The notes under the pieces are model-generated. The model saw nothing but the letters and a program-made list of their open reading frames with translations. It made no database searches and was not told where the DNA came from. From the NCBI GenBank assembly GCA_045617125.1, contig JAZLIA010000047.1, positions 1 to 15,562 of the forward strand: a stretch of 15,562 nt of DNA, in the 5' to 3' direction. Below are positions 1-14,063 of this stretch, in pieces (position 1 is the stretch's first letter; every line of letters starts with the position of its first letter). The stretch comes from Clostridia bacterium. Its GTDB lineage: Bacteria > Bacillota > Clostridia > Christensenellales > Aristaeellaceae. The translations under genes and the position numbers were made by a program.

Positions 1-278
1 GCAAACACGCCGACAATATCCTTATCGGTTATATCCCGTTCAAGGTGGGTGCGGTTATCGCCGCAAATAACATAGCCGGATTTAGTTACCTGAACAATGC
101 GGTGCATTGTATAGTGTCCGTCCCGTCTATATACGGGAATATCATATTTTTTAAGCGGAAACACAGGCTTTCGTACCACAATTTTATCGCCCGTTTTAAT
201 CATAGGAGCCATACTGTTGCCCTCTGTGGTAGTCATATAAAAGCCGTGTTCTGCAAGGCATTTTTCTATTCCTTTCAC
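1..278 (-). CDS. S24/S26-family serine peptidase (SipW/Sec11-like motif set). Partial: the 3' end lies beyond the left window edge.
   Basis: The minus-strand frame is open from 278 to position 1. Translation: VKGIEKCLAEHGFYMTTTEGNSMAPMIKTGDKIVVRKPVFPLKKYDIPVYRRDGHYTMHRIVQVTKSGYVICGDNRTHLERDITDKDIVGVF. It shows the GNSMAP nucleophile-Ser box plus HRIV and GDNR boxes, as in S26B/SipW-type and S24 peptidases. GTG at 278 overlaps the upstream TGA (GTGA), and ATG at 236 is an alternative start. The + strand track ORF 45..341 is its antisense shadow. Confidence 0.75.
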   Translation of the reverse strand, partial: MKGIEKCLAEHGFYMTTTEGNSMAPMIKTGDKIVVRKPVFPLKKYDIPVYRRDGHYTMHRIVQVTKSGYVICGDNRTHLERDITDKDIVGVF

Positions 279-976
279 CCGATAATCACCTCATACGCCG
301 TTTTTGCGGCTGACAAGTCCATATTGCACCTTATCACATAAAATTCCGCCGTTTTTAAGAGCATATCCGCCATTTTCAAAGTTTGTATCATATATTTTCC
401 GTTATCGGTATAGATATACGAAAACAGCTTTGTCAAGGCTTCGCTTGCCGTTATTTTAATACATTTAATACATTCGTTTTTCTCGCTCCGTTCTATAAAG
501 CATATTTTTTTAAGGGGAGTACACTTGTTTGTCTGCTCGCCCTCTTTACCTGCCCACGGCGTACCGTAGGCATAAGCCTGACCGCCCGAAAAACGCACAA
601 GCGGTTTATCGCCGTTAATGACGGTTAGTTTATCTTTCAAAAGCTCTTTCCAAAGTGAAGCGTGAGTTGACTTGCCGACACCGCTTTTTGCAAAAAAGCC
701 TATGCCTGTATTATCCGTTTCAAGTATAACACCGTGCATTAAAAAGCCGTCATATTCAAACATCTTCACGGCGATTTTGCGATATATTGCAAGGCTTTCG
801 AGATAACCGTTCGGATAGCTTGCGGTCTGTTCCGCCGCAATTTCATCATCTGTCGCTTCGATTACAAGCTCCGGTGCTAAAACAGCCGGGACAATATAAT
901 CCCGGCACATAAGCTCAACATATTCATATTTATTTTTTATGCAGACATTCAAATCCGCTATTCTTATATAAAACAT
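275..976 (-). CDS. HprK-related P-loop kinase (HPr kinase C-terminal-domain-like), RiPP-associated
   Basis: Track ORF 275..994. I prefer ATG at 976 (MFYIRIADL...), which sits 1 nt after the PqqD stop codon (978-980). P-loop FFAKSGVGKSTHASLW. The roughly 230-aa size and the position beside a PqqD protein match the HprK-like kinases seen in RiPP clusters (lasso kinase type, SynChlorMet ScmC type). Confidence 0.8.
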   Translation of the reverse strand: MFYIRIADLNVCIKNKYEYVELMCRDYIVPAVLAPELVIEATDDEIAAEQTASYPNGYLESLAIYRKIAVKMFEYDGFLMHGVILETDNTGIGFFAKSGVGKSTHASLWKELLKDKLTVINGDKPLVRFSGGQAYAYGTPWAGKEGEQTNKCTPLKKICFIERSEKNECIKCIKITASEALTKLFSYIYTDNGKYMIQTLKMADMLLKTAEFYVIRCNMDLSAAKTAYEVIIG

Positions 977-977
977 A

Positions 978-1235
978 TTATTCTTCCAGTGCACCGATCT
1001 TTTTCAATACTTCAATCGTACTGTCAACCGAATTCTCAAGCTCGTCCCGCTTGGCGTCATATTCCTTTGCCAACGTATCAATAACATTTTCTTTTGTTGT
1101 TTCTTCCTGCAAGCATTCAATAATAAATTTTGCGGTATCGTTGATACGCACAACGCCGCTGAAAGCTCCATTCGTTGGAACAAGCAAAGCTTCATCCGCA
1201 ATTTGCGATATAATAAAACCGTCTTTGATTTTCAT
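978..1235 (-). CDS. PqqD-family protein (stand-alone RiPP recognition element / peptide chaperone)
   Basis: 85-aa ORF MKIKDGFIISQIADEALLVPTNG...VRINDTAKFIIECLQEETTKENVIDTLAKEYDAKRDELENSVDSTIEVLKKIGALEE. This is the typical PqqD/RRE length and pattern. AAGGAGG lies upstream (12-nt spacing) and the gene is tightly packed with its neighbours. Confidence 0.85.
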   Translation of the reverse strand: MKIKDGFIISQIADEALLVPTNGAFSGVVRINDTAKFIIECLQEETTKENVIDTLAKEYDAKRDELENSVDSTIEVLKKIGALEE

Positions 1236-1272
1236 AAGACAATATAACCTCCTTATTTTAATAGGATTAACA

Positions 1273-1299
1273 CAGCGGCGGTCGAAACGACCGCCACTG
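1273..1299 (-). promoter_or_regulatory. GC-rich intercistronic hairpin immediately 3' of the precursor ORF (partial terminator / mRNA-stabilising element)
   Basis: Minus-strand RNA reads CAGUGGCGGUCG-UUU-CGACCGCCGCUG: a 12-bp stem with one G.U pair and a 3-nt loop. It starts 14 nt after the precursor TAA. The following sequence UGUUAAUCCUAUU is only a weak U-tract, and the PqqD SD follows. Confidence 0.5.
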
Positions 1300-1313
1300 C
1301 GTAGATGGTGAGT

Positions 1314-1469
1314 TTACACGAATCCAGGATTGCAAGTCTGTTCTATTCCTGCGCATGAATCTTCAGTACCGCCACCAGTCGTGTCCCAAGTACATGTTCC
1401 GCTTGTTACGATAACATCCTGAGCATTGAACTCAACGACTTCCAATTTTGCCGGTTCAAATTTTTTCAC
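1314..1469 (-). CDS. RiPP precursor peptide, 51 aa (not in the supplied ORF track)
   Basis: GAAGGAGGTG-AAGATT-GTG: the SD lies 8 nt upstream of GTG at 1469, and TAA is at 1316-1314. Translation: MKKFEPAKLEVVEFNAQDVIVTSGTCTWDTTGGGTEDSCAGIEQTCNPGFV. It lies between the radical SAM and PqqD genes on the same strand. The N-terminal half is leader-like and the C-terminal half is rich in Cys, Thr, Gly and acidic residues. Confidence 0.75.
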   Translation of the reverse strand: MKKFEPAKLEVVEFNAQDVIVTSGTCTWDTTGGGTEDSCAGIEQTCNPGFV

Positions 1470-1520
1470 AATCTTCACCTCCTTCTGCAAAAATTTTATG
1501 ATAAACTGTTTTCGCAGTTA

Positions 1521-2849
1521 TCAACAGTTATCTTCGTCCGTTTTTTCTTCAGACGATTCCGTGGGATATAATGTATTTTTCATTTTCCCTTTTACTCCGG
1601 ACAATAGATTTTTACGAATATAATCTGTGCAATTTGACGCAGTATCACATCTTTTGAGGCGTATACATTCCGGATAATAAAAGCAGTCAGTGCATACTTC
1701 CTCCGGCGGAAAACATTCCTTAAACGATTTTCGCTCTTTTGCATCGACAAGGTTGTCCCAAATATCTCCGATATAATCAGAATCGGTATAATGCTCGCAA
1801 GCACCGAGTTTTCCATTCGGCAAGACCGTTACGGAGGTATCGCTGTCCGCCTGACAGCGATTCAATCTCAAACGATTGGACACATAGTTTTTAGACTGCA
1901 GGCAATACCTTTGAATCAGTTCGTCCAAAGCTTTCGATTTTTCATAAACTTCGGCGTATTCCTTATCCGATTTTTCCATAATCTGATAAATCAGCATGGA
2001 ATATACCCTTAAATATTTGTTTGTGCCGAAACGCCGGTAAAGCTGATGAACAAGCGCAATAAGGTCATCGGCGTTGACCGTACTGACATTCAAACGAATT
2101 TGAACATATATTTCATTTTCAAGACACTTTTTGATGTTTCCAAGCACAGTTTCAAACGGATTTGTATCATCATAAATATAATTTTTTGTTTGATTATATA
2201 TTTTTTCCGTTCCGTCCAGCGTAATCTGCACCATTTGCAGATTCCACATTTTTTTTGCTCTGCTGATGATCTCATCATCAAGAAGATAACCGTTTGTAGT
2301 CATATGAGAAGTGAAAGTTATATTTTTCTCTTTTAGCGCTTTTGAAATAATGTCTATCGCTTTTGTATTATATAATGGTTCGCCGCCGAACCAAGCTAAA
2401 TTTACAGGTTTTCCGCCGCAATGCTCCGCAATAAACTCCGCGGTTTTCAGTGCCGTTTCCTCGTTCATCGGATAACGCTTTGCATCTTTTTCAAAGCAAT
2501 AAAAACATCTCGCATTGCAATCTGTGGTCGTGAAGATAGTATAGCTTGTGATATGCTCCGATTTCTTCTGCATAGCACGCAAGGTAAACCGAATTTGGTC
2601 AACAAGCTTCATATCGTTTGTTTCCTCCGGCACGATGAACCATTTTTCATAAAGCTCCGGCAAATCAAACAAACGGGAATATTCCTCTTTGGAAAGGAGC
2701 ATCATTTCCCGCGTGAGGGTATGGAAAAGCAACACGTCGTCCTCTGCCGCTTCGGATACGACATAATGCATCAGGCGATAGTTTTCGCCCGTTTTCGCTT
2801 TCCCGAGAAGTTTAATAACATTATCCGCTGCGGGAATAATCGTCTTCAT
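1521..2849 (-). CDS. Radical SAM / SPASM-domain peptide maturase
   Basis: 442-aa ORF. CNARCFYC (C111/C115/C118) is the CxxxCxxC motif and follows a roughly 110-aa N-terminal extension. WFGGEPLYN is the SAM-binding GGE motif. The C-terminal region is Cys-rich and resembles an auxiliary-cluster (SPASM/twitch-like) domain: CQADSD...GACEH...CTDCFYYPECIRLKRC...C. Confidence 0.92.
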   Translation of the reverse strand: MKTIIPAADNVIKLLGKAKTGENYRLMHYVVSEAAEDDVLLFHTLTREMMLLSKEEYSRLFDLPELYEKWFIVPEETNDMKLVDQIRFTLRAMQKKSEHITSYTIFTTTDCNARCFYCFEKDAKRYPMNEETALKTAEFIAEHCGGKPVNLAWFGGEPLYNTKAIDIISKALKEKNITFTSHMTTNGYLLDDEIISRAKKMWNLQMVQITLDGTEKIYNQTKNYIYDDTNPFETVLGNIKKCLENEIYVQIRLNVSTVNADDLIALVHQLYRRFGTNKYLRVYSMLIYQIMEKSDKEYAEVYEKSKALDELIQRYCLQSKNYVSNRLRLNRCQADSDTSVTVLPNGKLGACEHYTDSDYIGDIWDNLVDAKERKSFKECFPPEEVCTDCFYYPECIRLKRCDTASNCTDYIRKNLLSGVKGKMKNTLYPTESSEEKTDEDNC

Positions 2850-2907
2850 AGATTTTGTCCCTTTCCGTTCCCTATAAATAGGACCGCAACAACGCTTGAT
2901 TTTAAAC

Positions 2908-2973: not shown

Positions 2974-3144
<171 letters not shown>

Positions 3145-3282: not shown

Positions 3283-3531
3283 TTACATCAGAAAGTCCGG
3301 CATAAACAGTTCGTGATTATTATAATATACTTGTTGTGCTTCCCGCCGGATGCTTTCGTTGTCGCACTGCAGCAGAGCCTCAAACAAATAGGTCTGCTCA
3401 TCTATTTCTATAAGATACTTCGTTCGGTTTGTCTTCAAATAGGTTGCGGCCTCTCTGGTAAATCCGTTTTTCTGAAGCCATATTATCAGCGGGTCAGTCG
3501 TACCATATTCGACAAACTCATTTTTCTTCAA
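3283..3531 (-). CDS. Hypothetical protein, 82 codons, possibly a 5'-truncated remnant
   Basis: AT-rich ORF KKNEFVEYGTTDPLIIWLQKNGFTREAATYLKTNRTKYLIEIDEQTYLFEALLQCDNESIRREAQQVYYNNHELFMPDFLM. The only available start is TTG at 3531, it has no SD, and it lies exactly at the composition break. I recognise no family. Confidence 0.45.
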   Translation of the reverse strand: MKKNEFVEYGTTDPLIIWLQKNGFTREAATYLKTNRTKYLIEIDEQTYLFEALLQCDNESIRREAQQVYYNNHELFMPDFLM

Positions 3532-4073
3532 TTCTGCGCGATGCCGGGGAATTGCTTTCGCATGGGGCTGACGGCCTTGTGTTTGGGTTTCTTTTTAGCG
3601 ACGGCACAGTGAACGAGGAACGGGTGAAGCGCCTTGTGGAGCTTGCGGGAGAAAGGGACACGGTGTTCAGCCGGGCGATCGATGTGACACCGGATTGGAA
3701 ACATGCCCTGGATGCCCTGATCCGAAACGGAGTAAAGCGGGTGCTTACAAGCGGGCAGAGAAGGGATGCTTTTTCGGGAAGAAACGTGATACGTGAGATG
3801 ATCGCTTTTGCCGGAAACAGCATCCGCATTCTGCCGGGATGCGGGATAAGGGAAGAAAACGTGCGTGAATTGATCAGCGCCACCGGGGCGCGGGAAATCC
3901 ACCTGAGCGGGAAGCACATCGGGGTTGCTGATTTTTCCGCCTGCTCAAATCCCGAGGTGCGCTTTGGTCTTCCCGGAATTAAGGAGGACCGGTATGACGT
4001 GATCGACCCGGAATATTTTGTTCGGGTGCGTGCCCGAGCGGAAGGAATGGAGGAAACAGCGTGTTTCGATTGA
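3531..4073 (+). pseudogene. cutC: cutC (CutC-family protein) lacking its N-terminal ~85-90 residues
   Basis: In-frame translation from 3531: ILRDAGELLSHGADGLVFGFLFSDGTVNEERVKRLVELAGERDTVFSRAIDV...RVLTSGQRRDAF... This matches the central and C-terminal part of CutC; from memory E. coli CutC reads ...[28 protein letters not shown]...FHRAFDM...LTSGQKSDAL. The track ORF starts at TTG 3552. The in-frame codons upstream are AT-rich and unrelated. Confidence 0.7.
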
Positions 4074-4990
4074 TCGGTACATGGCGCATGAGCCTGGAGG
4101 GCATCCGGGAGGCTGCCGGGATGCTTTTGAAGGGCGGAAAGGCGGATGACGCGGTGACCTACGCGGTAAGACGCGTGGAGGATGAGCCTGGCTTCACTTC
4201 AGTGGGCTATGGCGGGCTGCCCGCCCGGGACGGGCATGTTTACTGCGATGCCTCGTTTATGGATGGCGAAAGCCTGCGGTTGGGCGCGATCCTTTCGGCG
4301 GAAGGAATACGCAACCCGGTGGATGCGGCGCGGCTCCTATGCGGAAGAAGCACCAACTGTGTGCTGGCTGGGAGGGGAGCGGAGCAGTTTGCGATCAACA
4401 GCGGCCTTCCCATGCGGGATATGCACACAGAACAGAGCCTGCAGCGCTGGCAGGAGGAAGCATCCCTGATGAAAAACACGTCTCCGCTTCAGGCCTACCG
4501 CGGTCATGACACCGTGTGCGTGCTGGGAATGGATGCTTCGGGCCGCATGGTGAGCGCCGCTTCCACCTCCGGCCTGTTCATGAAGGAGCCCGGCAGGGTG
4601 GGGGATTCGCCCCTTGTTGGTTCGGGCTTTTACTGTGATGCCCGCTACGGCGCGGCGGCTGCGACGGGCCTGGGTGAAGATATCATGCGTTCCTGTCTTT
4701 CCTTTTCCATCGTTTCCGATATGCGCAGGGGAATGAGCCCTGCCCTTGCCTGTGCCCGGGCGGTGAATGAACTGAAACGGGACAAGGAGGAAAGGGGCGA
4801 ATATGACAGCTCCTTCAGCGTGATCGCTCTTGCCCCGGACGGCTCCTTCGGGGCTGCCACCACGCTTCCTGTGTTTCCCTTTGCCCTGGCGACAGAGCAG
4901 GGCACCTGGCTTTTTGGCTGCCGTCCGCAGGAGGACGGGAGCATGAAGCTGCTGCCTGAAACGGAAAATGCCCTGGAAGGGGAACCCTGA
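4061..4990 (+). CDS. Ntn-hydrolase of the asparaginase-2 family (glycosylasparaginase / isoaspartyl peptidase-like)
   Basis: 309 aa. It has the N-terminal IGTW motif, the autoprocessing motif GHDTVCVLGMD, and GRVGDSPLVGSGFYCD...GAAAATGLGEDIMR. GTG at 4061 overlaps the cutC stop codon. Confidence 0.88.
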   Translation: MFRLIGTWRMSLEGIREAAGMLLKGGKADDAVTYAVRRVEDEPGFTSVGYGGLPARDGHVYCDASFMDGESLRLGAILSAEGIRNPVDAARLLCGRSTNCVLAGRGAEQFAINSGLPMRDMHTEQSLQRWQEEASLMKNTSPLQAYRGHDTVCVLGMDASGRMVSAASTSGLFMKEPGRVGDSPLVGSGFYCDARYGAAAATGLGEDIMRSCLSFSIVSDMRRGMSPALACARAVNELKRDKEERGEYDSSFSVIALAPDGSFGAATTLPVFPFALATEQGTWLFGCRPQEDGSMKLLPETENALEGEP

Positions 4991-5084
4991 CGTGGAGGGG
5001 AAACCTTGTTTCCCCAAAAAAAGAAAAGACGGGAGGAGCTGCGTATGCTTTCCTTCCCGCATGAAATATTCGTTTGATCGTTCT

Positions 5085-5759
5085 TCATTTTTCAGCGCGG
5101 CACATTTCCTGCCGCGCTCTTTCCTTTTCAAGCCGTTCCCGGGCTTCTCTGGAAAAACGGCATCCGCAGTAGGGCTGGCGGTAAAGGTGATATTCCCTGC
5201 TGAGCTGAATGGAACGAAGATACCCGTTTTTCTTTTTGAAATCGCTGGTAAGATACTTTACGCCGTATTCCTCCTCAAGAAGGCTTCCTATGGCGTTCAG
5301 CTTTGCCGCGTTTTTGTAGGGGCTTACGGAAAGACTGGTGCAGAAGTAATCATATCCGCCTTCCTTTGCAGCCTGTGCGGCATCGCGCAAACGAAGCTCA
5401 TAGCATTTTTCGCACCGCGCACCGCCCTCGGGCAGCTGTTCCAGGCCTGAAGCGATTTGCAGGAAGGGGGCTTCATCCCATTCGGGAATTTCGGCTTTCA
5501 CAGCCTTTGCTGTTTGAAACTCCTTCAGGAGACGCAGCAGCTCCTCTGCTCGGTAGTCATATTCCTCCTTGGGGGAAATGTTGGGGTTGTAGTAGCGCAC
5601 CGTGATGTCAAAATAGGGGCACAGCCTTTCCAGCACCGCGCTGGAACAGGGAGCACAGCACACATGCAAAAGCAGCCGGAGGCGGGAGGAAAGGGATAAA
5701 AGTACCTGGTCCAGTTCATCCTGTTTCATCTTTGTACGCTTTCGTATTCGTTCAGTCAT
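5085..5759 (-). CDS. queH: Epoxyqueuosine reductase QueH (DUF208)
   Basis: LLLHVCCAPCS, YNPNISPKEEY, GGARCEKCYELRL, TSLSVSPYKN and YRQPYCGC are the hallmark QueH Cys motifs. ATG at 5759 overlaps the upstream gene stop by 8 nt (the track start at 5765 is TTG). ATG at 5729 is an alternative start. Confidence 0.88.
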   Translation of the reverse strand: MTERIRKRTKMKQDELDQVLLSLSSRLRLLLHVCCAPCSSAVLERLCPYFDITVRYYNPNISPKEEYDYRAEELLRLLKEFQTAKAVKAEIPEWDEAPFLQIASGLEQLPEGGARCEKCYELRLRDAAQAAKEGGYDYFCTSLSVSPYKNAAKLNAIGSLLEEEYGVKYLTSDFKKKNGYLRSIQLSREYHLYRQPYCGCRFSREARERLEKERARQEMCRAEK

Positions 5760-6657
5760 TTTCAAGCCTGTGCAGGACCGAGCGGGAAATTTTGGAAAGG
5801 TTTTCCGCGCAGGTCATGCTCATGGTGTAGCGAAGGTCCCGGGTGATTTCGTTTATTTTCCCGGTCACCCCCGCGGCTCCCTTTTCGCGGAGGGGCTGCA
5901 TCAGGGGCCTTCCAACACAGCAGGCGGCGGCTCCAAACGCCATGCAGCGGTAGATATCCTGGCCGTTTTGCAGGCTGCAATCCACAAACACGGGCAGGGT
6001 GCCGCCCACGGTTTTTACGATCTCAGGCAGCATGTAAAGGGGAGGAACGGTACAATCCATGCGCCCGTTGTGGTGGCTTACCACGATCCCGCCGGCTCCT
6101 GCCCGAACACACTGCGCGGCATCCTCCGTGGAAAGCACGCCTTTTACAATAAAGGGCAAGTGGGTGGAGGCACAAAGGTCGCGCAATTCTTTCAGGGTGA
6201 TCGGAGAGATCTCCATTTCATCCACCCGGTCATACACGCTTTCCCGGTTGAAGGCATGGTCGATATCGATGCCCACGGCCAGGGCACCATGCTGCTCCGC
6301 ATGGCGGATGCGGGCATAAATGCTTTCGCGGTCCCGGTAGGTCTTGATGATCTTGATCACCTGTGCGCCGGTGTCCAGCATGCGCGCCAGCTCGTCAGGC
6401 TTTCCCATTCCACTGAAGCATACGGCTCCGGCATCCCGGGCCCCCTGAGCGTATTCGGTCATGCCGTCCCGCCCCGCATCCAGAGAACAGAAGCGGTTGA
6501 GATGGGAGAGGGCCCCGGTCATGACCGGGGTGGAAAAGTGATGGCCGAACAGGTCCATTCCCGTGTCCGCGGCAGTGGAGCCGATGTGCCTTACTTCAAA
6601 AAGCCAGCTGTCGAGATAGCGGCGGTTGATCTGATCGGAACTGATCATTCTTTCCAT
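5752..6657 (-). CDS. FMN-dependent alpha-hydroxy-acid dehydrogenase/oxidase-family protein (short form)
   Basis: 301 aa. PFIVKGVLSTEDA...GAGGIVVSHHNGRMD corresponds to the family VKG...GI.VSNHGGRQ.D active-site region. An SD (GAGG) precedes ATG 6657. Confidence 0.75.
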   Translation of the reverse strand: MERMISSDQINRRYLDSWLFEVRHIGSTAADTGMDLFGHHFSTPVMTGALSHLNRFCSLDAGRDGMTEYAQGARDAGAVCFSGMGKPDELARMLDTGAQVIKIIKTYRDRESIYARIRHAEQHGALAVGIDIDHAFNRESVYDRVDEMEISPITLKELRDLCASTHLPFIVKGVLSTEDAAQCVRAGAGGIVVSHHNGRMDCTVPPLYMLPEIVKTVGGTLPVFVDCSLQNGQDIYRCMAFGAAACCVGRPLMQPLREKGAAGVTGKINEITRDLRYTMSMTCAENLSKISRSVLHRLEND

Positions 6658-6666
6658 ATTAATACC

Positions 6667-7506
6667 TCACTTGAAAATCAGCTTTTCTTTTTCTGCCAGT
6701 GAGCGGAGATAGCGGGTGGAATACACATAATCCTCATGCGTGCTGAGATGCTCGGTGAACAGGGGAATATCCTCTCCCAGCTGATCCGCCAGATGCAATA
6801 CCAGTGAAAGCGGCAGGCTGCCCTTGCTCACCGGCACCTCGCTTACCGCAAAGGGAAGCACGGAATCGGATATCAGGCAATCCTTGATGTGGATGCTCAC
6901 GATACTTTTGCCCAGCTTTTCAAAGCAGTCCCGTATCAGGATATCCGGGTGAAGATAGCGTTCCAGGGAGTTTACCATGTTGCAGAAATCCAGATGTACC
7001 CGGAAGGCTTCCCGATCGACCTCCCTGATCAGGGCCAGGTAATCCTCCGGGCTGTCCGGCGTCATCCAGGGCATGGGTTCCAGAGAATAGGAGGTGTGGG
7101 TGGGCTTCACCGCATCCAGGATCTGTTGAGTGAGGTGAACGACCCGTTCCCGGGTTCTTTGAGAATAATTATCGGGATGGAAGCCGTCCCACACCTTCCC
7201 GCAGGAGCCGCTGATGTTTACGCAGCAGTTGGCTCCCACTTTTTCAGCCAGCTCCAGCTGACGTATCGAATACTGCAAATATTCTTCCTGCTTAGAAATA
7301 TCCTCGTCCAGAAGGTTTTTCCAGATGCCCACTTCGCCGATCAGGATGTTTTCATCCTGAAGACGTGCTGTAAGCTCCTTTATCAGGGCTTCAGGCGCGC
7401 TGCTGTCCACCGGGAACACCACTGCGCTGTATCCCATTTCCTTCACAAGCTGCATATATTCCCCGGCTGTTTTCCAGGGCTTCATGATGGCACCGCCGAT
7501 ACGCAT
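6667..7506 (-). CDS. Sugar-phosphate isomerase/epimerase (xylose-isomerase-like TIM barrel)
   Basis: 279 aa with the typical family pattern (LELAEKVGANCCVN..., SLEPMP, VHLDFCNM, IHIKD). A strong SD (GGGGAGG) lies 8 nt before ATG 7506. Confidence 0.78.
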   Translation of the reverse strand: MRIGGAIMKPWKTAGEYMQLVKEMGYSAVVFPVDSSAPEALIKELTARLQDENILIGEVGIWKNLLDEDISKQEEYLQYSIRQLELAEKVGANCCVNISGSCGKVWDGFHPDNYSQRTRERVVHLTQQILDAVKPTHTSYSLEPMPWMTPDSPEDYLALIREVDREAFRVHLDFCNMVNSLERYLHPDILIRDCFEKLGKSIVSIHIKDCLISDSVLPFAVSEVPVSKGSLPLSLVLHLADQLGEDIPLFTEHLSTHEDYVYSTRYLRSLAEKEKLIFK

Positions 7507-7542
7507 TTTCTGTACCTCCCCAAATCGATCTCTTTGTGTGTA

Positions 7543-7571
7543 AATGTATCACAAGGGGCATCATTCGTCAA
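7543..7571 (-). promoter_or_regulatory. Candidate promoter for the isomerase / FMN-dehydrogenase / queH operon
   Basis: Minus strand: TTGACG (7571-7566), 17 nt, TGA-TACATT (-10 at 7548-7543). Confidence 0.35.
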
Positions 7572-7720
7572 TCGGCTGCGGGAAGGATGAACGGTAAATA
7601 CAGTCAGGATAATCGTATAAATTGGTTTTTCCGGGCAGGCAGCGGGGGAAAGTCTTTCTGCGACTTTCAGAAAAATCAGAGAGCGGATTTGGAAATACAA
7701 TAAAAAAACCAATTTACCTA

Positions 7721-7748
7721 TTGCAATTCTTTCAAAACAGTGTATAAT
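7721..7748 (+). promoter_or_regulatory. Candidate promoter for the amino-acid ABC transporter operon
   Basis: TTGCAA (7721-7726), 16 nt, TATAAT (7743-7748). The -10 box lies inside the perfect 14-bp palindrome TGTATAATTATACA (7741-7754). Confidence 0.45.
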
Positions 7749-7782
7749 TATACATGTAATCACACGAAAGGAGGTCATTCTA

Positions 7783-7842
7783 ATGCATAATTATTGCATT
7801 TGCGTATTCTCTGATCGACGATGGCGGTGTGCTTTCCGATGA
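7783..7842 (+). CDS. Candidate 19-aa leader ORF (MHNYCICVFSDRRWRCAFR)
   Basis: GAAAGGAGG lies 8 nt upstream of ATG 7783, and TGA is at 7840-7842. It lies between the promoter and the SBP gene. The start codon sits inside an inverted repeat, so it may be an operator rather than a coding feature. Confidence 0.2.
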   Translation: MHNYCICVFSDRRWRCAFR

Positions 7843-7896
7843 TCCCGGTTTATAATGACTGACCTTATTGATCAAAAAATGATGGAGGAAAATAAA

Positions 7897-8715
7897 ATGA
7901 AAAAGCTGCTTGTTGTTATGATCGCGATGGTGATGGTACTCGGTATGGTCTCCTTTGCTCAGGCGGATACGCTCAGTGATATTCAGGCAAAGGGCACCCT
8001 GGTGGTGGGCGCCAATGTTCTGTTCCCTCCCTATGAATTCTATTGGACCAATCCTGAAACGGGCGAAGAAGAATATGCCGGTTTCGATATGGCGCTGGCC
8101 AAGGGTGTTGCCGAGCAGATCGGTGTGGAACTGGTCATTGCCGATCAGGATTTTGCCGGGCTTGTGACCGCCCTTTCGGTGGGTGAGCTGGATATGGTCA
8201 TCAGCGGCATCGCCATCCGGGATGACCGGAAGGAAGTGGTGGATTTCTCCGATCCGTACTATAACGGAACACAGATCATGCTGGTGCGTGCCGCGGATTA
8301 TGATGTGCTCACCAAGGTGGAGGATCTGAACGGCAAGGGTGTGGGCGCCCAGACCGGCAGTCTTCAGGCGGGCATTTTGGAAGAACAGTTTTCCAATGCC
8401 AATGGTGTGACCATGGATAAGATCCCGCTGATGATCCTGGACCTGATGAACGGCGAATTGGACGGCTTGCTCCTTACCGATACAGTGGCGAAGCAGTACA
8501 TGGCTGTATATCCCGGCATGTTCGTGATCAGTCAGGTGCCCGTTGTGTATGATAATACCGCCGGTGTCGGCATCGCGGTGCAAAAGGGCGACAACGAAAG
8601 CCTGCTGAAGCTGCTCAACGATTATATCGCTGCCATCAAGGCCGATGGCACCTTCGACGCCTGGGAGCAGGAAGCGATGGACAAGAGCGCCGGTCTGGTG
8701 GAAACCGCTGAATGA
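7897..8715 (+). CDS. Polar amino-acid ABC transporter substrate-binding protein (SBP family 3)
   Basis: GGAGGAAAATAAA-ATG at 7897. Signal peptide MKKLLVVMIAMVMVLGMVSFAQA followed by the family-3 SBP pattern (GTLVVGANVLFPPYEF..., DMVISGIAIRDDRKEVVDFSDPYY). The track start at 7855 is upstream of the SD and is rejected. Confidence 0.9.
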   Translation: MKKLLVVMIAMVMVLGMVSFAQADTLSDIQAKGTLVVGANVLFPPYEFYWTNPETGEEEYAGFDMALAKGVAEQIGVELVIADQDFAGLVTALSVGELDMVISGIAIRDDRKEVVDFSDPYYNGTQIMLVRAADYDVLTKVEDLNGKGVGAQTGSLQAGILEEQFSNANGVTMDKIPLMILDLMNGELDGLLLTDTVAKQYMAVYPGMFVISQVPVVYDNTAGVGIAVQKGDNESLLKLLNDYIAAIKADGTFDAWEQEAMDKSAGLVETAE

Positions 8716-8736
8716 TCCCGCGCCCTTGAGGATATT

Positions 8737-8771
8737 GGAAAGGCCTCTTCCCATGGCGGGGAGGTCTTTCC
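8737..8771 (+). promoter_or_regulatory. Intercistronic hairpin after the SBP gene
   Basis: GGAAAGGCCUC (8737-8747) pairs with GAGGUCUUUCC (8761-8771): 11 bp with one G.U pair and a 13-nt loop. No U-tract follows. This is the kind of stem often found after SBP genes in ABC operons. Confidence 0.4.
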
Positions 8772-8804
8772 CCTGTCATATACCATTTGCAGAAAGGAAA
8801 TCTG

Positions 8805-9500
8805 ATGATTAGTCTGGAGAAAATTTGGGAGATCCTGACGACCAAATTCGGCACCTTCATGATGGGCGCCGGGGTCACGCTGAAGCTCAGCGCCTATACC
8901 GTGCTGATCGGTTTTTTGCTGGGGCTGCTGGTGGCGGTGTTCAGGAATAACAGGATCGCGCCCCTTCGCTGGCTGATGAACGCCTATGTGGCCTTTATCC
9001 GCGGAACGCCATTGCTTGTGCAGGTGCTTTTGATCGTTTATGGCTTGCCTCAGCTGGGACTGAACCGGATCGGCGCGTATAAAATGTCCAAATTCGATAT
9101 GTGTCTGATCGCCCTGGGCATCAACAGCGGCGCATATATGGCGGAGATCATCCGCGCGGGCCTGCAAAGTGTGGATCATGGGCAGGCGGAAGCGGCGGAC
9201 AGCCTGGGCATGAGCGGGTTTCAGAAGCTGCTGTATATCATTTTGCCTCAGGCGATCAAGGTGATCCTGCCGACCATGGGAAATGAATTTGTTGCCATCA
9301 TCAAGGAATCCTCCGTTCTGTACAGTGTGGGCGTGTATGAGCTGACATATCAGGCCAATAAGCTGGCCAGCGTGAATTACCGCTATCTGGAAACCATGCT
9401 GGATGCCGCGCTGATCTATTTTGTTCTTACTTATGTGGCTACCAAGCTTTTGAATCTGTTGGAATGGAGGATGCGGCGCAGTGAGCGAAAAGCAGTGTGA
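8805..9500 (+). CDS. Amino-acid ABC transporter permease (His/Glu/Gln/Arg/opine family)
   Basis: ATG at 8805 (MISLEK...) preceded by AAAGGAAA; the track TTG at 8787 is less likely. Typical motifs: [21 protein letters not shown] and the EAA-like loop [29 protein letters not shown]. Confidence 0.9.
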
Positions 9501-10260
9501 TATTTTTGATTCCGGCAGCCAGGAGCAGGTACTCATTCAGGTAAGAGACCTGAAAAAGAGCTTCGGGAAGCTGAACGTGCTCAAGGGCATTAACATGAAT
9601 GTGCATAAAGGGGATGTGCTGGTCATTATCGGTCCCAGCGGAAGCGGAAAAAGTACTTTGCTTCGCAGCCTGAACCTGCTGGACCCGCCCACTGGCGGAA
9701 GCCTCATGTTTGAAGGCAGGGAATTGACGCACACCTCCAAAAAAGAGCTTTGCGCTGCCCGTCGGCATATAGGCATGGTGTTTCAGCAGTTCAATTTGTT
9801 TCCTCATCTGAAGGTGAAGGACAACGTGACCATCTCTCTGAGGAAGGTGCTGCGGTGCGGCAGGGAGGAAGCGGAGCAGAAGGCGAAAAAGCTGCTGGAA
9901 CGCGTGGGACTCGGGGATAAATGGGATGTGTATCCCGACAGCCTCAGCGGCGGGCAGAAGCAGCGCGTGGCCATCATGCGCGCTTTGGCGATGGACCCGG
10001 ATGTGATCCTCTTTGACGTGCCCACCAGTGCACTGGATCCGGAAATGGTGGGAGAGGTGCTGGATGTGATGAAGTCTCTGGCTGCCAGCGGCATGACCAT
10101 GCTGGTAGTCACCCATGAAATGCGCTTTGCCCGGGAGGTCGGAGATTATATCCTCTTTATTGATGACGGGCAGATCATGGAGCATGGCACCCCGGAGGAG
10201 ATATTCGATCATCCTCAGAATCCCCGCACACAGGATTTTCTTTCCAAGGTGCTTCAATAA
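9481..10260 (+). CDS. Amino-acid ABC transporter ATP-binding protein (GlnQ/ArtP-like) with Val replacing the Walker-B catalytic Glu
   Basis: Walker [11 protein letters not shown]-loop MVFQQFNLF, signature [15 protein letters not shown] and H-loop VVTHEM are all present. Walker B reads [12 protein letters not shown] instead of ...FDEPTSALD. GTG at 9481 overlaps the permease stop codon, and GGAGGA lies 9 nt upstream. Confidence 0.92.
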
Positions 10261-10269
10261 ATATGATCA

Positions 10270-10296
10270 GGGGATCCGGGACGGGTCCCCTTCTTT
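10270..10296 (+). terminator. Rho-independent-type terminator after the ABC operon
   Basis: GGGGAUCCG-GGA-CGGGUCCCC (9-bp stem with one G.U pair) followed by UUCUUUG. Confidence 0.55.
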
Positions 10297-10308
10297 GCAG
10301 GAGGCGTT

Positions 10309-11418
10309 ATGATGTTCATCGATCCCTATGAATCCCTGAAAGCGTATGTGAATCAGCCCAGCGGCAGCCTGGACCAGAAGGATGTGACGAAGGTTGCCAT
10401 GATGTTCAAGGAGGATTTTGAAAGCCTGGGCTTTCAAACACAGATATATGAGGGGAAAAAGTATGGCCCGCGCCTTATCTGCACCATTGGTACAGGTGAT
10501 AAAAACCTGATGCTGATGGGGCATATGGACACCGTTTTTCCACATGACCTGTCTGTTCCCTATACTGAAACGGAGGATGGGCGTATCCTTGGAAGCGGTG
10601 TAACAGACATGAAGGGCGGTGTGGTGGTGATGCTTTATGCTCTGCGTGAAGCGCTGCCGCAGATCGACCTTAAGAAATACAGGCTCACCGTGGTGCTCAA
10701 TGCGGATGAAGAGGTCGGTAGCCCGGAAAGTCATGATATGATCCTGGAAAATGCCGGGAAAGCGTTTGCCGCGTTGAGCTTTGAACCCGCAGGCGCAGAC
10801 GGGCGCATGACCTGTGCCCGCAAGGGCGTGACCAGTGTGCTGATCCATTGCAGGGGAAAGGCAGGGCATGCGGGAGCGGAATATACCCATTGTGCCAGCG
10901 CCATACAGGCGCTCTGCGCCCAGATTACCGCATTGTATGCCCTGAGGGATGACGCACGGGAGATCAGCTTCAACGCCGGTCTTATCAGCGGCGGCACCGC
11001 CGAAAATGTGGTGGCCCCGGAAGCCCAATGCAAATGCGAATTCCGTTATTTTGATCAGAGCCTGCAAAAGGGGCTGATGCAGAAGATCAGTGAGATCGTT
11101 TCCCATGAGCCCGTTCCGGGAGTGGTAACGGATATCACCTTCGGTGCAAGCCATCCTGCGGTGGATGTGACCGAAAAGAGCATTGAGCTGTTCAGAATGG
11201 CTCAGAATATCGCCGCCCGGCAGGGCAGAACGCTCTATCATGAAAAGACCGGCGGGGCCGGAGATATCGCCATTGCGGGTCAGGCAGGCATCGGTGTGCT
11301 GGATGGCTTAGGACTGTATGGCGGCGGGGTGCATACCGTTCAGGAATTTGCTCTTCGGGAAAGCCTGCCAAACCAGATTCGTCTGGCAGCGGAAATGCTG
11401 AAACAGGTGTGCTGTTAA
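10309..11418 (+). CDS. M20-family metallopeptidase (carboxypeptidase G2 / glutamate carboxypeptidase-like)
   Basis: 369 aa with LMGHMDTVFP, GSGVTDMKGG and NADEEVGSPESH metal/catalytic motifs. AGGAGG SD lies before ATG 10309. Confidence 0.88.
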   Translation: MMFIDPYESLKAYVNQPSGSLDQKDVTKVAMMFKEDFESLGFQTQIYEGKKYGPRLICTIGTGDKNLMLMGHMDTVFPHDLSVPYTETEDGRILGSGVTDMKGGVVVMLYALREALPQIDLKKYRLTVVLNADEEVGSPESHDMILENAGKAFAALSFEPAGADGRMTCARKGVTSVLIHCRGKAGHAGAEYTHCASAIQALCAQITALYALRDDAREISFNAGLISGGTAENVVAPEAQCKCEFRYFDQSLQKGLMQKISEIVSHEPVPGVVTDITFGASHPAVDVTEKSIELFRMAQNIAARQGRTLYHEKTGGAGDIAIAGQAGIGVLDGLGLYGGGVHTVQEFALRESLPNQIRLAAEMLKQVCC

Positions 11419-11447
11419 GACATAAACCCTAACTCGTATGCCGCGGC

Positions 11448-11476
11448 TTGACAAAAGCAGGTTTTTCCTGTAAGAT
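11448..11476 (+). promoter_or_regulatory. Promoter of the trpS T-box leader
   Basis: TTGACA (11448-11453), 17 nt, TAAGAT (11471-11476). Confidence 0.6.
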
Positions 11477-11482
11477 GGTGCC

Positions 11483-11717
11483 ATAACCTGAGACAGGGAA
11501 GAGTAATCGGCTTCTGCCCTCACAGAGAGCCGCCGGGGATGGAATGGCGGCAGGGCAAGGCCGGTGAATGGGCCCCGGAGGGCACAGGCGAAAAGGTAGC
11601 CTGTGACGGGCAGCGGCCGTTATACCGCCCAAAGGGTCCTTTTCCGCAGGAAGAGGGCTGAAATTGAGTGGCACCGCGAAAACTTCGCCTCAAGCAGTAA
11701 TGCTGAGGTGCTTTTTT
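11483..11717 (+). promoter_or_regulatory. T-box riboswitch leader, Trp-specific (specifier UGG at 11569-11571)
   Basis: The Stem I elements are present: UGAGA (K-turn), AGAGUA (S-turn), the AG bulge CAGAGAG, and the distal helix CCGCC/GGCGG with loop GGGGAUGGAAU. The specifier context is GAA-UGG-G. The Stem II hairpin is CACAGGC...GCCUGUG. The T-box sequence is AAAUUGAGUGGCACCGCG (11661-11678). The terminator is GCCUCAAGCA-GUAA-UGCUGAGG followed by UGCUUUUUU (11687-11717). Confidence 0.85.
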
Positions 11718-11742
11718 ATGCACAGGAAAGAAGGAGATCACC

Positions 11743-12750
11743 ATGAGCGAACAGGTTCAGGAAAAGAAAAAAGTTGTGTTTTCGGGCATTCAGCCTTCCG
11801 GCAATATCACGCTGGGCAACTATATCGGCGCGCTTCGCAATTTTACCCATTTTGAGGATGCTGACTGCCTCTACTGCATGGCCGATCTGCACACCCTCAC
11901 GGTGAGGCAGAACCCGGCGGAGCTGAGGAAGCGCACCGCTTCCCTGGCGGCGATCTATATTGCCTGCGGTCTGGACCCGGAAAAGAACATCATCTACTGT
12001 CAGAGCCATGTTCCGGCTCACGCAGAGCTTGCGTGGATCCTGAACTGCTACACCTACATGGGTGAGCTTCAGCGCATGACTCAGTTCAAGGATAAATCCG
12101 CCAAGCATGCTGACAATATCAACGCGGGTCTTTTCACTTATCCGGTTTTGATGGCCAGCGACATTCTTCTGTATCAAACCGATTATGTTCCTGTTGGGGT
12201 CGATCAGAAGCAGCATGTGGAGATCTGCCGGGATATCGCGCAGCGCTTCAACAGCATTTACGGCGATGTGTTCACCATTCCCGAGCCTGTCATTGCCAAA
12301 GCGGGCGCCAAGGTGATGAGCCTGGCGGAACCTACCAAGAAAATGAGCAAATCCGATCCGGACGACACCTATATCGCCGTTCTGGACAAGCCTGAGGATA
12401 TCCGCCGCAAGCTCAAGCGGGCTGTGACTGACAGCGACGGCGAGATCCGCTATGATCCTGAAAACAAGCCCGGCGTGAGCAACCTGCTCACCATCCTTTC
12501 CGTGCTGGAAGGAAAAACGATGGAGGAGAGCGTAAAGGACCTGCAGGGCCTGGGTTACGGCGCACTGAAGGATGCTGTGACGGAAGCGGTACTGCGTGAG
12601 CTTGCTCCCATCCAGCAGAAATACAATGAGATCATGGCGGATAAGAGCTATCTTCCCGCGATATTGAAGAATAATGCGGAACGGGCCCAGTATCTGGCTT
12701 CGAAAACGCTGCGCAAGGTGTATAAGAAGGTGGGATTGTATCAGCTGTGA
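11743..12750 (+). CDS. trpS: Tryptophan--tRNA ligase
   Basis: 335 aa. Class I motifs are present: the HIGH-region equivalent (GIQPSGNITLGNYIGAL) and KMSKS (KKMSKSDPDD). GGAG SD lies before ATG 11743, and the gene is preceded by a UGG T-box. Confidence 0.95.
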   Translation: MSEQVQEKKKVVFSGIQPSGNITLGNYIGALRNFTHFEDADCLYCMADLHTLTVRQNPAELRKRTASLAAIYIACGLDPEKNIIYCQSHVPAHAELAWILNCYTYMGELQRMTQFKDKSAKHADNINAGLFTYPVLMASDILLYQTDYVPVGVDQKQHVEICRDIAQRFNSIYGDVFTIPEPVIAKAGAKVMSLAEPTKKMSKSDPDDTYIAVLDKPEDIRRKLKRAVTDSDGEIRYDPENKPGVSNLLTILSVLEGKTMEESVKDLQGLGYGALKDAVTEAVLRELAPIQQKYNEIMADKSYLPAILKNNAERAQYLASKTLRKVYKKVGLYQL

Positions 12751-12795
12751 TGCAGCCCTGAATGAAAGAACGGGACAAAGGAACGGAGGTTCGGC

Positions 12796-13674
12796 ATGGA
12801 GTATTCTGTGGAGCGTGAGACCCATCTCTGGCTGCCGGAAGGAGAACCCAAAGCGGTCATCCAGATCATTCACGGCATGGCCGAGCATATCGGACGTTAT
12901 GAGCAGACGGCGAAGGATCTGAATAGGGCAGGCTATGCTGTTGCCGGGATCAATCTGCGCGGTCATGGGCAAAATGCGGAACGGAAGGGTTGGTTTGCCG
13001 ACAAAAATGGCTGGGGAAGGCTGCTGGAGGATCATCGGGAGCTGACGCTCAGCCTGCGGAAACGTTTTCCGGGAAAACCACTTGTGCTGCTCGGGCATTC
13101 CATGGGGTCCTTTCTGGCAAGAGAGTATGCGATCCGCTGGAAGGGCGACATGGATGCGCTGGTGCTTTCCGGCACCGGGCATTATGACAGAAAGCTTTGC
13201 GGAACGGGAAAATTGCTGGCAAGCGTGTCTCCCCGCAAAAGGCCGGCCCATTTGGTAAATAACATTGCCTTTAAGGGCAATAACCGGCCCTTTGTTCCGG
13301 CCCGCACCGGGTTTGAATGGTTATGCCGGGATGAAAAGGAAGTGGATGCCTATGTTGCATCGCCGCTTTGCGGCTTTGTGTTCACCGGCTCGGCTTTCCG
13401 GGACTTTTTCGGCGGCCTTGTCAAGCTGTGCGACACTTCGCGTCTTGAAAATATCCGCAAAGACTTGCCTGTGCTTTTCATTTCCGGCGACCGGGACCCG
13501 GTGGGGCAGATGGGAAAGGGCGTCAGGATCACTGAGGAGGAGTACAGGAATGCGGGGATCCGGAACGTGAAGGTGAACCTGTATCCCGGAGCGCGGCATG
13601 AGCTTTTCCATGAAACCAACCGGGATGAGGCGATCCGGGACCTGACCAGGTGGCTTGACCATTATTTTGCTTGA
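12796..13674 (+). CDS. Alpha/beta hydrolase (lysophospholipase / monoacylglycerol-lipase-like)
   Basis: 292 aa. Motifs: IIHGMAEHIGRY, nucleophile elbow GHSMGS, and C-terminal GDRDPV...ARHELFHE (Asp/His of the triad). GGAGG SD is present. Confidence 0.85.
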   Translation: MEYSVERETHLWLPEGEPKAVIQIIHGMAEHIGRYEQTAKDLNRAGYAVAGINLRGHGQNAERKGWFADKNGWGRLLEDHRELTLSLRKRFPGKPLVLLGHSMGSFLAREYAIRWKGDMDALVLSGTGHYDRKLCGTGKLLASVSPRKRPAHLVNNIAFKGNNRPFVPARTGFEWLCRDEKEVDAYVASPLCGFVFTGSAFRDFFGGLVKLCDTSRLENIRKDLPVLFISGDRDPVGQMGKGVRITEEEYRNAGIRNVKVNLYPGARHELFHETNRDEAIRDLTRWLDHYFA

Positions 13675-13685
13675 GGCTTGATAAT

Positions 13686-14063
13686 ATGATCGTTGGCGTA
13701 GGCATTGATCTGTGCGAGATCGGGCGGATGGAAACGCTGCTTCATGAGGAGCGTTTTCTCGCCCGTTGTTTTGCTCGGGAGGAACAGGAATATATTTTAA
13801 ATCGGGGCCGTATGGCTTCAGCTTCCATGGCTGGCATTTTTGCGGCGAAGGAAGCGCTGGTGAAGGCATTGGGCACCGGCTTTATCGACACGCAGCTCAG
13901 TGATATACGGGTGGAACACGATGCGTACGGCGCTCCTTATTTTGATCTTACCGGCGGCATTGCGGTTCATGTTTCGCAAAGGGGCATCACCTCGCTGCAT
14001 TTATCCATCACCCATGAAGGAAACATGGCTGCGGCTGTTGTGGTCGCGGAAAGGAATATATGA
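13686..14063 (+). CDS. acpS: Holo-[acyl-carrier-protein] synthase
   Basis: MIVGVGIDLCEI..., FAAKEALVKALGTGF, ISITHEGNMAAAVVVAE. ATG at 13686 is preferred; the track start at 13671 is TTG. The stop overlaps the nnr start (ATGA). Confidence 0.92.
   Translation: MIVGVGIDLCEIGRMETLLHEERFLARCFAREEQEYILNRGRMASASMAGIFAAKEALVKALGTGFIDTQLSDIRVEHDAYGAPYFDLTGGIAVHVSQRGITSLHLSITHEGNMAAAVVVAERNI

Follow-up and report, generated by a model that had tools for sequence, protein, structure and literature searches.

We analyzed a stretch of 15,562 nucleotides from a Clostridia bacterium (contig JAZLIA010000047.1 of assembly GCA_045617125.1; hereafter the window), the left 2.85 kb of which carry a cassette of five minus-strand genes for a peptide that is made by ribosomes and modified after its translation (RiPP). 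In the direction of transcription, these genes encode a radical S-adenosylmethionine (SAM)/SPASM peptide maturase (1521..2849; 442 aa), a precursor peptide (1314..1469; 51 aa, with a GTG start), a stand-alone PqqD-type RiPP recognition element (RRE; 978..1235; 85 aa), an HprK-like P-loop kinase of the Pfam "ScmC" family (275..976; 233 aa) and a leader peptidase resembling SipW/archaeal-type signal peptidases (S24/S26; 1..278, i.e., the first 92 of ~153 codons). Only a single t (position 977) separates the TAA stop codon of pqqD from the ATG of the kinase gene, and the GTGA at 275-278 represents an overlap of the kinase stop and the peptidase start. An earlier note on this DNA, made from its letters alone, had described five tightly packed minus-strand genes with exactly this 1-nt gap and GTGA overlap, and the sequence bears out the layout, its coordinates and both junctions. 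Every reading frame of the cassette is unbroken, the genes are translationally coupled, and the G+C content of the cassette stretch is ~0.40 vs. ~0.55 for the remainder of the window. A GC-rich hairpin of 15 bp without a U-tract (1270..1302, minus strand) is located between the precursor gene and pqqD; RNA folding gave a free energy of -30.9 kcal/mol and a z-score of -5.3 (0 of 200 shuffled sequences equally stable), and the hairpin may act as an attenuator or mRNA stabiliser.

The precursor, MKKFEPAKLEVVEFNAQDVIVTSG-TCTWDTTGGGTEDSCAGIEQTCNPGFV, has a conserved leader, after which comes a three-cysteine core. Its GTG start codon is located 8 nt after an AAGGAGG site and is replaced by ATG in a second copy of the cassette, found on a metagenomic contig (L001). 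The window precursor matches (E = 3e-10) the profile of a leader family that reads [Y/F]xx[P/A]ExE[V/I][I/V]xFxxxDVITTSG, followed by a short variable core, with 1 to 6 small precursor genes per cassette. Using this profile, 3,101 precursor clusters were found in the protein collection, none with a Pfam domain, and "hypothetical protein" was the sole source name among 120 listed precursor clusters. One close relative (P0357) retains the core pattern CTWDxTGGGTEDSCAGIExTC. The serine of the motif (DVIxxS) was kept in 37 of 39 precursors. As 10 of 30 non-cysteine cores in the locus set, and 29 of 65 in the database set, have no further Ser or Thr after the motif, a kinase with a conserved serine target would have to act on the motif Ser.

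The maturase matched the Pfam models PF04055 (Radical_SAM; E = 4e-15) and PF13353, and its best NCBIfam matches were all RiPP SPASM maturases, all with scores far under the cut-offs. Among solved structures, CteB (5wgg) was nearest by sequence (E = 3e-13) and was also the top Foldseek match of an AlphaFold2 (AF2) model (mean confidence score, pLDDT, 87), aligning over the full length including the N-terminal domain (E = 1e-17), followed by TigE, SuiB and SkfB. The invariant cysteines of the maturase comprise C111/C115/C118 (CxxxCxxC) as well as C332, C351, C386, C389, C395, C401 and C407; the spacing C332-x13-G-x4-C351 agrees with the SPASM motif. Its N-terminus forms a domain of ~100 aa that resembles an RRE. 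CteB is the maturase of thermocellin, a ranthipeptide, and SkfB is a sactipeptide synthase; both form thioethers. With these two, the window system shares a layout of three domains (recognition domain at the N-terminus, radical SAM core and seven-cysteine SPASM domain), as well as cysteines in the substrate core; on the other hand, identity is merely about 16-17%, the maturase falls below every curated family cut-off, and the separate PqqD, kinase and signal-peptidase-like protease are absent from the known sactipeptide and ranthipeptide clusters. Judged from sequence and predicted fold, the maturase is a CteB-like radical SAM/SPASM RiPP enzyme that groups with thioether-forming enzymes rather than with sulfatase maturases. 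The anaerobic sulfatase maturase (anSME), which the earlier note had named as an identity that would overturn its RiPP reading, ranked lower in Foldseek with a shorter alignment and was absent from the top 25 NCBIfam matches.

Core cysteines (1 to 3 per peptide) were found in all nine distinct precursors encoded beside a radical SAM enzyme of the window type as compared to none of 30 precursors from loci without the enzyme; the precursors of two further loci (L087 and L089) and many database peptides fit this association. One may nevertheless propose that the radical SAM/SPASM enzyme installs a different change, e.g., a C-C or C-O cross-link, an epimerisation or a cyclopropyl group, and that the cysteines serve disulfide formation or metal binding. 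Such a function could accommodate the sub-cut-off NCBIfam scores, the presence of TigE (a cyclopropylglycine synthase) and SuiB (which forms a Lys-Trp cross-link) among the structural neighbours, and the Trp, Thr, Asp and Glu residues that the core contains besides cysteine. However, the strict association of cysteines with the enzyme (9/9 vs. 0/30), the best match to thioether-forming CteB by both sequence and fold, with SkfB among the top matches, and the presence of all seven conserved SPASM cysteines argue for thioether chemistry, and we consider the proposed other change improbable.

No model of the local Pfam library matched the 233-aa protein, which was recognized only by TIGR04249 (ScmC; E = 2e-3), and weakly; homologues of the protein are assigned to PF27840 (ScmC), a newer Pfam family. 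In an alignment of 38 sequences, the HprK-type H81, the P-loop S98-G-x-G-K102 and the segment N121-G-D-K-P125 were invariant, and members of the family matched the NCBIfam models TIGR00679 (20 of 38) and TIGR04249 (16 of 38) as well as TIGR04355 and TIGR04352. HprK (1jb1) was the best PDB sequence for the family profile, and Foldseek placed HprK/P first (E = 2e-6), before PEPCK, for an AF2 model with a pLDDT of 92. The protein is thus HprK-like by its modelled fold, as the earlier note had it, and its activity as a kinase is predicted. The peptidase matched PF00717 (Peptidase_S24; E = 1e-9), and its best NCBIfam match was TIGR02228 (archaeal-type signal peptidase I; E = 1e-7). Its first element is a short helix, and it lacks a membrane anchor at the N-terminus; S22, H59, D74 and E80 were invariant across 54 homologues. 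The adaptor matched PF05402 (E = 9e-13), with lasso-type PqqD chaperones as its best NCBIfam matches. The cassette is a RiPP operon, as proposed in the earlier note.

Adaptor, kinase and peptidase are also found together in the gene clusters of linear polyphosphorylated peptides (LPP), a class defined in 2026 from 126 clusters, mostly of Bacilli, with lppAKBSDN of Paenibacillus alginolyticus DSM5050 as an example (Popov et al., Nat Commun, May 2026, PMC13381572). The conserved genes of this class encode LppS (a SipW-like archaeal-type signal peptidase), LppB (a stand-alone PqqD), LppK (HprK-like), LppN (NTP_transf_5) and LppD (an MsbA-like exporter), the precursor motif is YxxPxVLxHQxIxFETxxS, and the product is linear (PMC13381572). 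LppK puts 1 to 4 phosphates on Ser3 of the core, a conserved serine just past the cleavage site; LppS, in which S29, H68 and D93 are essential, cleaves after F-E-T and requires LppB; the unphosphorylated precursor is barely processed in vivo, and processed cores keep 1 to 4 phosphates (PMC13381572). The leader's YxxP motif is held in LppB by N33 and D70, and N33, which fixes the leader kink, is essential for leader binding (PMC13381572). According to the authors, LppS-type peptidases are new to RiPP pathways (PMC13381572), and a 2023 review of leader proteases mentions no signal-peptidase-type enzyme. The few clostridial peptidases in the LPP data set sit in minor similarity clusters outside that study (PMC13381572).

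We compared the clostridial proteins with the LPP sequences given in Supplementary Data 1 of PMC13381572. A clostridial peptidase profile matched LppS (E = 2.8e-20), and S22, H59 and E80 of the window peptidase align with the catalytic S29, H68 and D93 of LppS, so that the Ser/His/acid set is retained with Glu in place of Asp; D82, which had been considered as the third catalytic residue, was rejected as the full LppS alignment gives E80. A clostridial PqqD profile matched LppB (E = 1.5e-10) and, equally well, the lasso adaptor PbaB1. Asn32 of the window PqqD aligns with N33 of LppB, a position at which paeninodin-type RREs have Gly. Ser69 of the window PqqD aligns with the Tyr-binding Asp70 of LppB, and in the window precursor a Phe takes the place of the Tyr of LPP leaders; adaptor and leader may have covaried here, in a region where the alignment is weak. 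For the kinase, the likeness is read from models, i.e., the window kinase family matches the four NCBIfam models behind the "HprK kinase" category of the LPP study.

Both systems have in common an HprK-like kinase, a stand-alone PqqD and a SipW/archaeal-type peptidase, and the earlier note's assignment of the peptidase as SipW-like is upheld by the TIGR02228 and LppS matches. The likeness extends to the precursor, whose leader begins [Y/F]xxP-like and has both a Phe-x-small site and a conserved Ser, and to related clostridial loci, which also carry genes for NTP_transf_5 and an ABC exporter. We take the kinase, PqqD and peptidase of the cassette together for a probable LPP-type module. The window cassette differs from LPP clusters in that it contains neither an NTP_transf_5 (LppN) nor an MsbA-like exporter (LppD) gene; its leader is related but distinct, with a DVITTSG block and other spacing, and its host belongs to the Clostridia rather than the Bacilli. 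Further additions are a radical SAM/SPASM enzyme and cysteines in the core; owing to the latter, the product of the window cassette is probably not linear. The text and supplements of the LPP paper do not mention radical SAM/SPASM enzymes (PMC13381572), and we found this addition to an LPP-type module described nowhere in the literature. The suggestion that the pairing of PqqD and HprK-like kinase was characterised only in lasso clusters is consequently outdated, since with a SipW-like peptidase the pair forms the experimentally studied LPP core (PMC13381572). Similarly, the claim that the set of genes is new as a whole holds for the radical SAM addition only and not for the kinase/PqqD/peptidase trio.

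In L001, the same five genes are present at 90% DNA identity in a different context, and the similarity to the window spans exactly window positions 1-2852, ending 3 bases upstream of the radical SAM start codon. The full peptidase gene of L001 encodes 153 aa and closes the cassette, with a convergent TnpV gene behind it; by this copy, the operon does not extend to a transporter or to more tailoring genes. The earlier note had the operon run past the left edge, where a transporter, an immunity gene or tailoring genes might lie. Only ~61 peptidase codons are located beyond the window. The source contig (15,730 bp) probably ends inside the peptidase gene, and an exact look-up of the window radical SAM protein, aimed at a leftward extension, matched no record. 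The complete L001 copy likewise contains neither an NTP_transf_5 nucleotidyltransferase nor an exporter gene.

Between the window and L001, the enzymes showed 86-92% identity and the precursor 56%, with a conserved leader and a divergent core; dN/dS ranged from 0.14 to 0.16 for all four enzymes. The enzymes are under purifying selection and the precursor core is hypervariable. Kinase-peptidase and radical SAM-kinase fusion proteins exist in the protein collection. The recurrence of the arrangement in L001 at 90% identity, the low dN/dS values and these fusion proteins indicate that the five-gene arrangement is not due to chance. The cassette, with five genes in about 3 kb, is compact and horizontally mobile. 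The low-GC island in which it is located extends to ~3530, where it adjoins a cutC gene (window ~3530-4073). Of the 202 positions of the CutC profile, this gene matches only 84-201, the first ~83 being gone, and it seems that cutC lost its 5' third when the island was inserted. A search of plasmids with the kinase yielded only weak matches (25-29% identity). This context (an island of 0.40 G+C in a surrounding of 0.55 that abuts a truncated cutC, a TnpV gene adjoining the L001 copy, a related locus, L087, that has lost two genes, and the lack of an exporter) could also suggest that a mobile island carries the cassette as a silent or decaying passenger, with no product in its host. Intact and translationally coupled frames throughout, and dN/dS of 0.14-0.16 for each enzyme relative to a copy ~10% diverged, make such a fate very hard to credit.

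Relatives of the kinase formed 5,360 clusters at 90% identity in the protein collection, some of them fused to an S24 peptidase, and were found in at least 586 loci of species-representative genomes, nearly all from gut or rumen Clostridia. Kinase, PqqD and peptidase, together with the conserved leader, thereby define a large family of Clostridia that lacks annotation. We fetched 80 loci of this kinase family and scored their gene content, for the peptidase with a profile built from domain envelopes. The kinase was accompanied by PqqD and peptidase genes in 40 of the 80 loci and by a peptidase gene only in nine, while in 24 loci there was no PqqD, peptidase or radical SAM gene within 6 kb of the kinase gene. 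An NTP_transf_5 nucleotidyltransferase was encoded in 17 loci, and ABC exporters were common. Homologues of the window radical SAM enzyme occurred in seven loci, and all four gene types were present together in five (L027, L063, L072, L082 and L083); gene order varies among these five loci, and L082 adds a nucleotidyltransferase and an exporter. The window kinase is nearest to stand-alone or kinase-peptidase-only forms (45-51% identity; closest in reference genomes), whereas its identity to the kinases of other radical SAM loci is 35-41%, which suggests that modules have been shuffled. With regard to the lone kinases, the genes in L007 (7001-7693) and 23 other loci are located amid sugar-metabolism and other housekeeping genes.

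For the radical SAM enzyme, roughly 3,336 clusters were counted. Some relatives of the maturase also occur by themselves or with a second enzyme. In Oscillospiraceae, radical SAM homologues with ~45% identity are located alone between lysS and trkH (L084-L086), and no precursor (sought specifically beside the L084 homologue), PqqD, kinase or peptidase gene was found nearby. Some clusters have more than 1,000 member sequences, i.e., this is a very common gut gene. In two loci a second, short radical SAM/SPASM gene (280-290 aa) adjoins the cassette (L088, 4949-5821; L003, 9308-10150) and may encode an additional maturase.

Taken together, we favor, with a probability of roughly 60%, the interpretation that the cassette combines an LPP substrate-handling core with a CteB-like radical SAM/SPASM cross-linker and that its product is a leaderless, thioether-bridged peptide with a phosphoserine. 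A thioether and phosphate product, as proposed in the earlier note, still represents the best prediction, one whose chemistry is read from homology and for which we found no description in the literature. By analogy with the LPP pathway, biosynthesis may begin with binding of the N-terminal part of the leader (FEPAKLEVVEF) by the PqqD adaptor, as suggested by the LppB-LppA crystal structure. The HprK-like kinase would then use ATP to phosphorylate, possibly repeatedly, Ser23 of DVIxxS-G, as LppK does with its substrate. In a third step, the radical SAM/SPASM enzyme, using its own N-terminal recognition domain, would join the three core cysteines to acceptors as thioethers, a prediction made because of the homology and the strict association between cysteines and enzyme described above. 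Finally, the SipW-like peptidase, with its putative Ser/His/acid set, would take the leader from PqqD and remove it by a cut at one of two places, namely behind F14-N15-A16, the homologue of the F-E-T cut of LPP, or behind TSG24. The predicted product would have ~27-35 residues, thioether bridges and a phosphoserine near its N-terminus. As the cassette contains no nucleotidyltransferase, the phosphate is probably not decorated further, and, as it contains no exporter, export, if any, would proceed via host functions.

Phosphorylation in this pathway could, however, be transient. Under this hypothesis the product would be an ordinary thioether peptide of the ranthipeptide or sactipeptide type, and the phosphate would serve as a licence for leader cleavage and be removed later, or the HprK-like protein would be an ATPase or scaffold of a peptidase-adaptor complex. 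The poor processing of unphosphorylated LPP precursor fits such gating (PMC13381572), kinase-peptidase fusions suggest a single functional unit, L087, which has neither kinase nor peptidase, still has the radical SAM enzyme, the precursor and PqqD, and the cassette has no nucleotidyltransferase that would build on the phosphate. Conversely, processed LPP cores retain their 1 to 4 phosphates (PMC13381572), the P-loop and the HprK-type His/Asp positions of the kinase are invariant, and the cassette contains no phosphatase gene. We therefore regard a transient phosphate as unlikely, and prefer the interpretation that the phosphoserine is retained in a thioether-bridged product.

Several observations weigh against this preferred interpretation. 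The spacing of leader elements differs from that in LPP, i.e., 6 residues lie between Pro and Phe (9 in LPP) and the Ser follows the FET-like site by 7 residues (3 in LPP), so that the positions given for cleavage and phosphorylation are extrapolations. The window kinase scored 17 bits on TIGR04249, and its kinship to LppK is read from shared models only. The Pfam SPASM model scored below threshold on the maturase, and the cassette has no exporter. In L087 (6001-8133), a radical SAM enzyme with 75% identity is kept along with a three-cysteine precursor and PqqD while kinase and peptidase are gone (a 68-aa open reading frame [ORF] and housekeeping genes come after the cassette); the cross-linking step may thus be independent of kinase and peptidase. 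Moreover, 24 of the 80 kinase homologues stand alone among housekeeping genes, as do abundant radical SAM homologues with ~45% identity.

Comparisons with other known systems showed partial likeness. As in the lasso peptide clusters of paeninodin and pseudomycoidin, there is an HprK-like kinase, which in those clusters (poly)phosphorylates a precursor Ser, a stand-alone PqqD (B1) and a similar leader motif ([Y/W]xxP), and an NTP_transf_5 protein that decorates the phosphate has a counterpart in related clostridial loci. Neither the window nor L001, however, has an asparagine-synthetase-like cyclase or a transglutaminase-like B2 cysteine protease; the window peptidase is a serine enzyme of the signal-peptidase type, and the predicted phospho-acceptor lies close to the core's N-terminus and not, as in lasso peptides, at the C-terminus. 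The idea that the kinase might activate Asp or Glu for a lasso-like macrolactam, which came from the acidic cores that start with Gly, was dropped as less probable, since the homologous LPP module polyphosphorylates Ser. The uncharacterised SynChlorMet cassette (TIGR04249-TIGR04251) resembles the window cassette in its combination of radical SAM/SPASM enzymes, a PqqD homologue and a ScmC-type HprK-like protein, but it has two radical SAM genes as compared to one, and the window cassette has a peptidase and an identifiable precursor. The earlier note had pointed to SynChlorMet; scores of 17.3 bits on TIGR04249 (ScmC; cut-off 125) and 41.8 bits on TIGR04250 (ScmE; cut-off 400) are far too low for a SynChlorMet-type assignment. 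Literature searches on SynChlorMet, on ScmC/PF27840/PF14907 and on HPr kinase with RiPP and signal peptidase found nothing relevant. FlmE and OhkG proved to be part of unrelated peptide-arginase clusters.

A broader reading, which we hold tentatively and at slightly less than even odds, is that the cassette represents an undescribed RiPP type, i.e., a radical-SAM thioether macrocycle with (poly)phosphoserine beside the new N-terminus. It would form a branch of a very large and unannotated clostridial "DVITTS-leader" superfamily whose members share the kinase/PqqD/signal-peptidase module and pair it with tailoring enzymes that can be exchanged (radical SAM for cysteine cores, nucleotidyltransferase for short acidic cores), and would move among gut bacteria as a five-gene block. 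LPP-like kinase/adaptor/signal-peptidase logic is far more widespread in gut and rumen Clostridia, with hundreds of species and thousands of unannotated precursors. The minority of loci that couple this module to a radical SAM cross-linker would merge polyphosphorylation and radical thioether chemistry, which have so far been described separately. As a minimal cassette of five genes and ~3 kb, the system suits heterologous reconstitution and could reveal if leader cleavage is gated by phosphorylation and in what way a single leader serves three different enzymes; the conserved DVITTSG leader can be used as a handle for genome mining.

Upstream of the operon, a perfect tetranucleotide microsatellite, (GCTT)13.8, is located at window 3028-3082 and reads (AAGC)n on the operon strand. 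At ~180 nt upstream of the start of the radical SAM gene, it lies within a small ORF of the minus strand (start at 3143) and between a promoter-like site (3228-3200) and a terminator-like hairpin (3030-3012). The same repeat, as a (GCAA)n run, closes the contigs of a related kinase-radical SAM-precursor cassette (L089, 7694-7745; L090, 4219-4246). The (GCTT)n tract may represent a phase-variable switch or a repeat that breaks assemblies. An 82-aa ORF without a Pfam match (window 3283-3531, minus strand), which is also located in the low-GC island upstream of the operon, might encode a regulator or be an island remnant. The rest of the window (4061-15562) carries ordinary high-GC housekeeping genes, i.e., genes for an Asparaginase_2-family protein, an FMN-dependent dehydrogenase, a xylose-isomerase-like TIM-barrel protein, a family-3 solute-binding protein, a binding-protein-dependent transport permease, an M20 peptidase, a class I (Trp/Tyr-type) tRNA synthetase and an NAD(P)H-hydrate repair enzyme.

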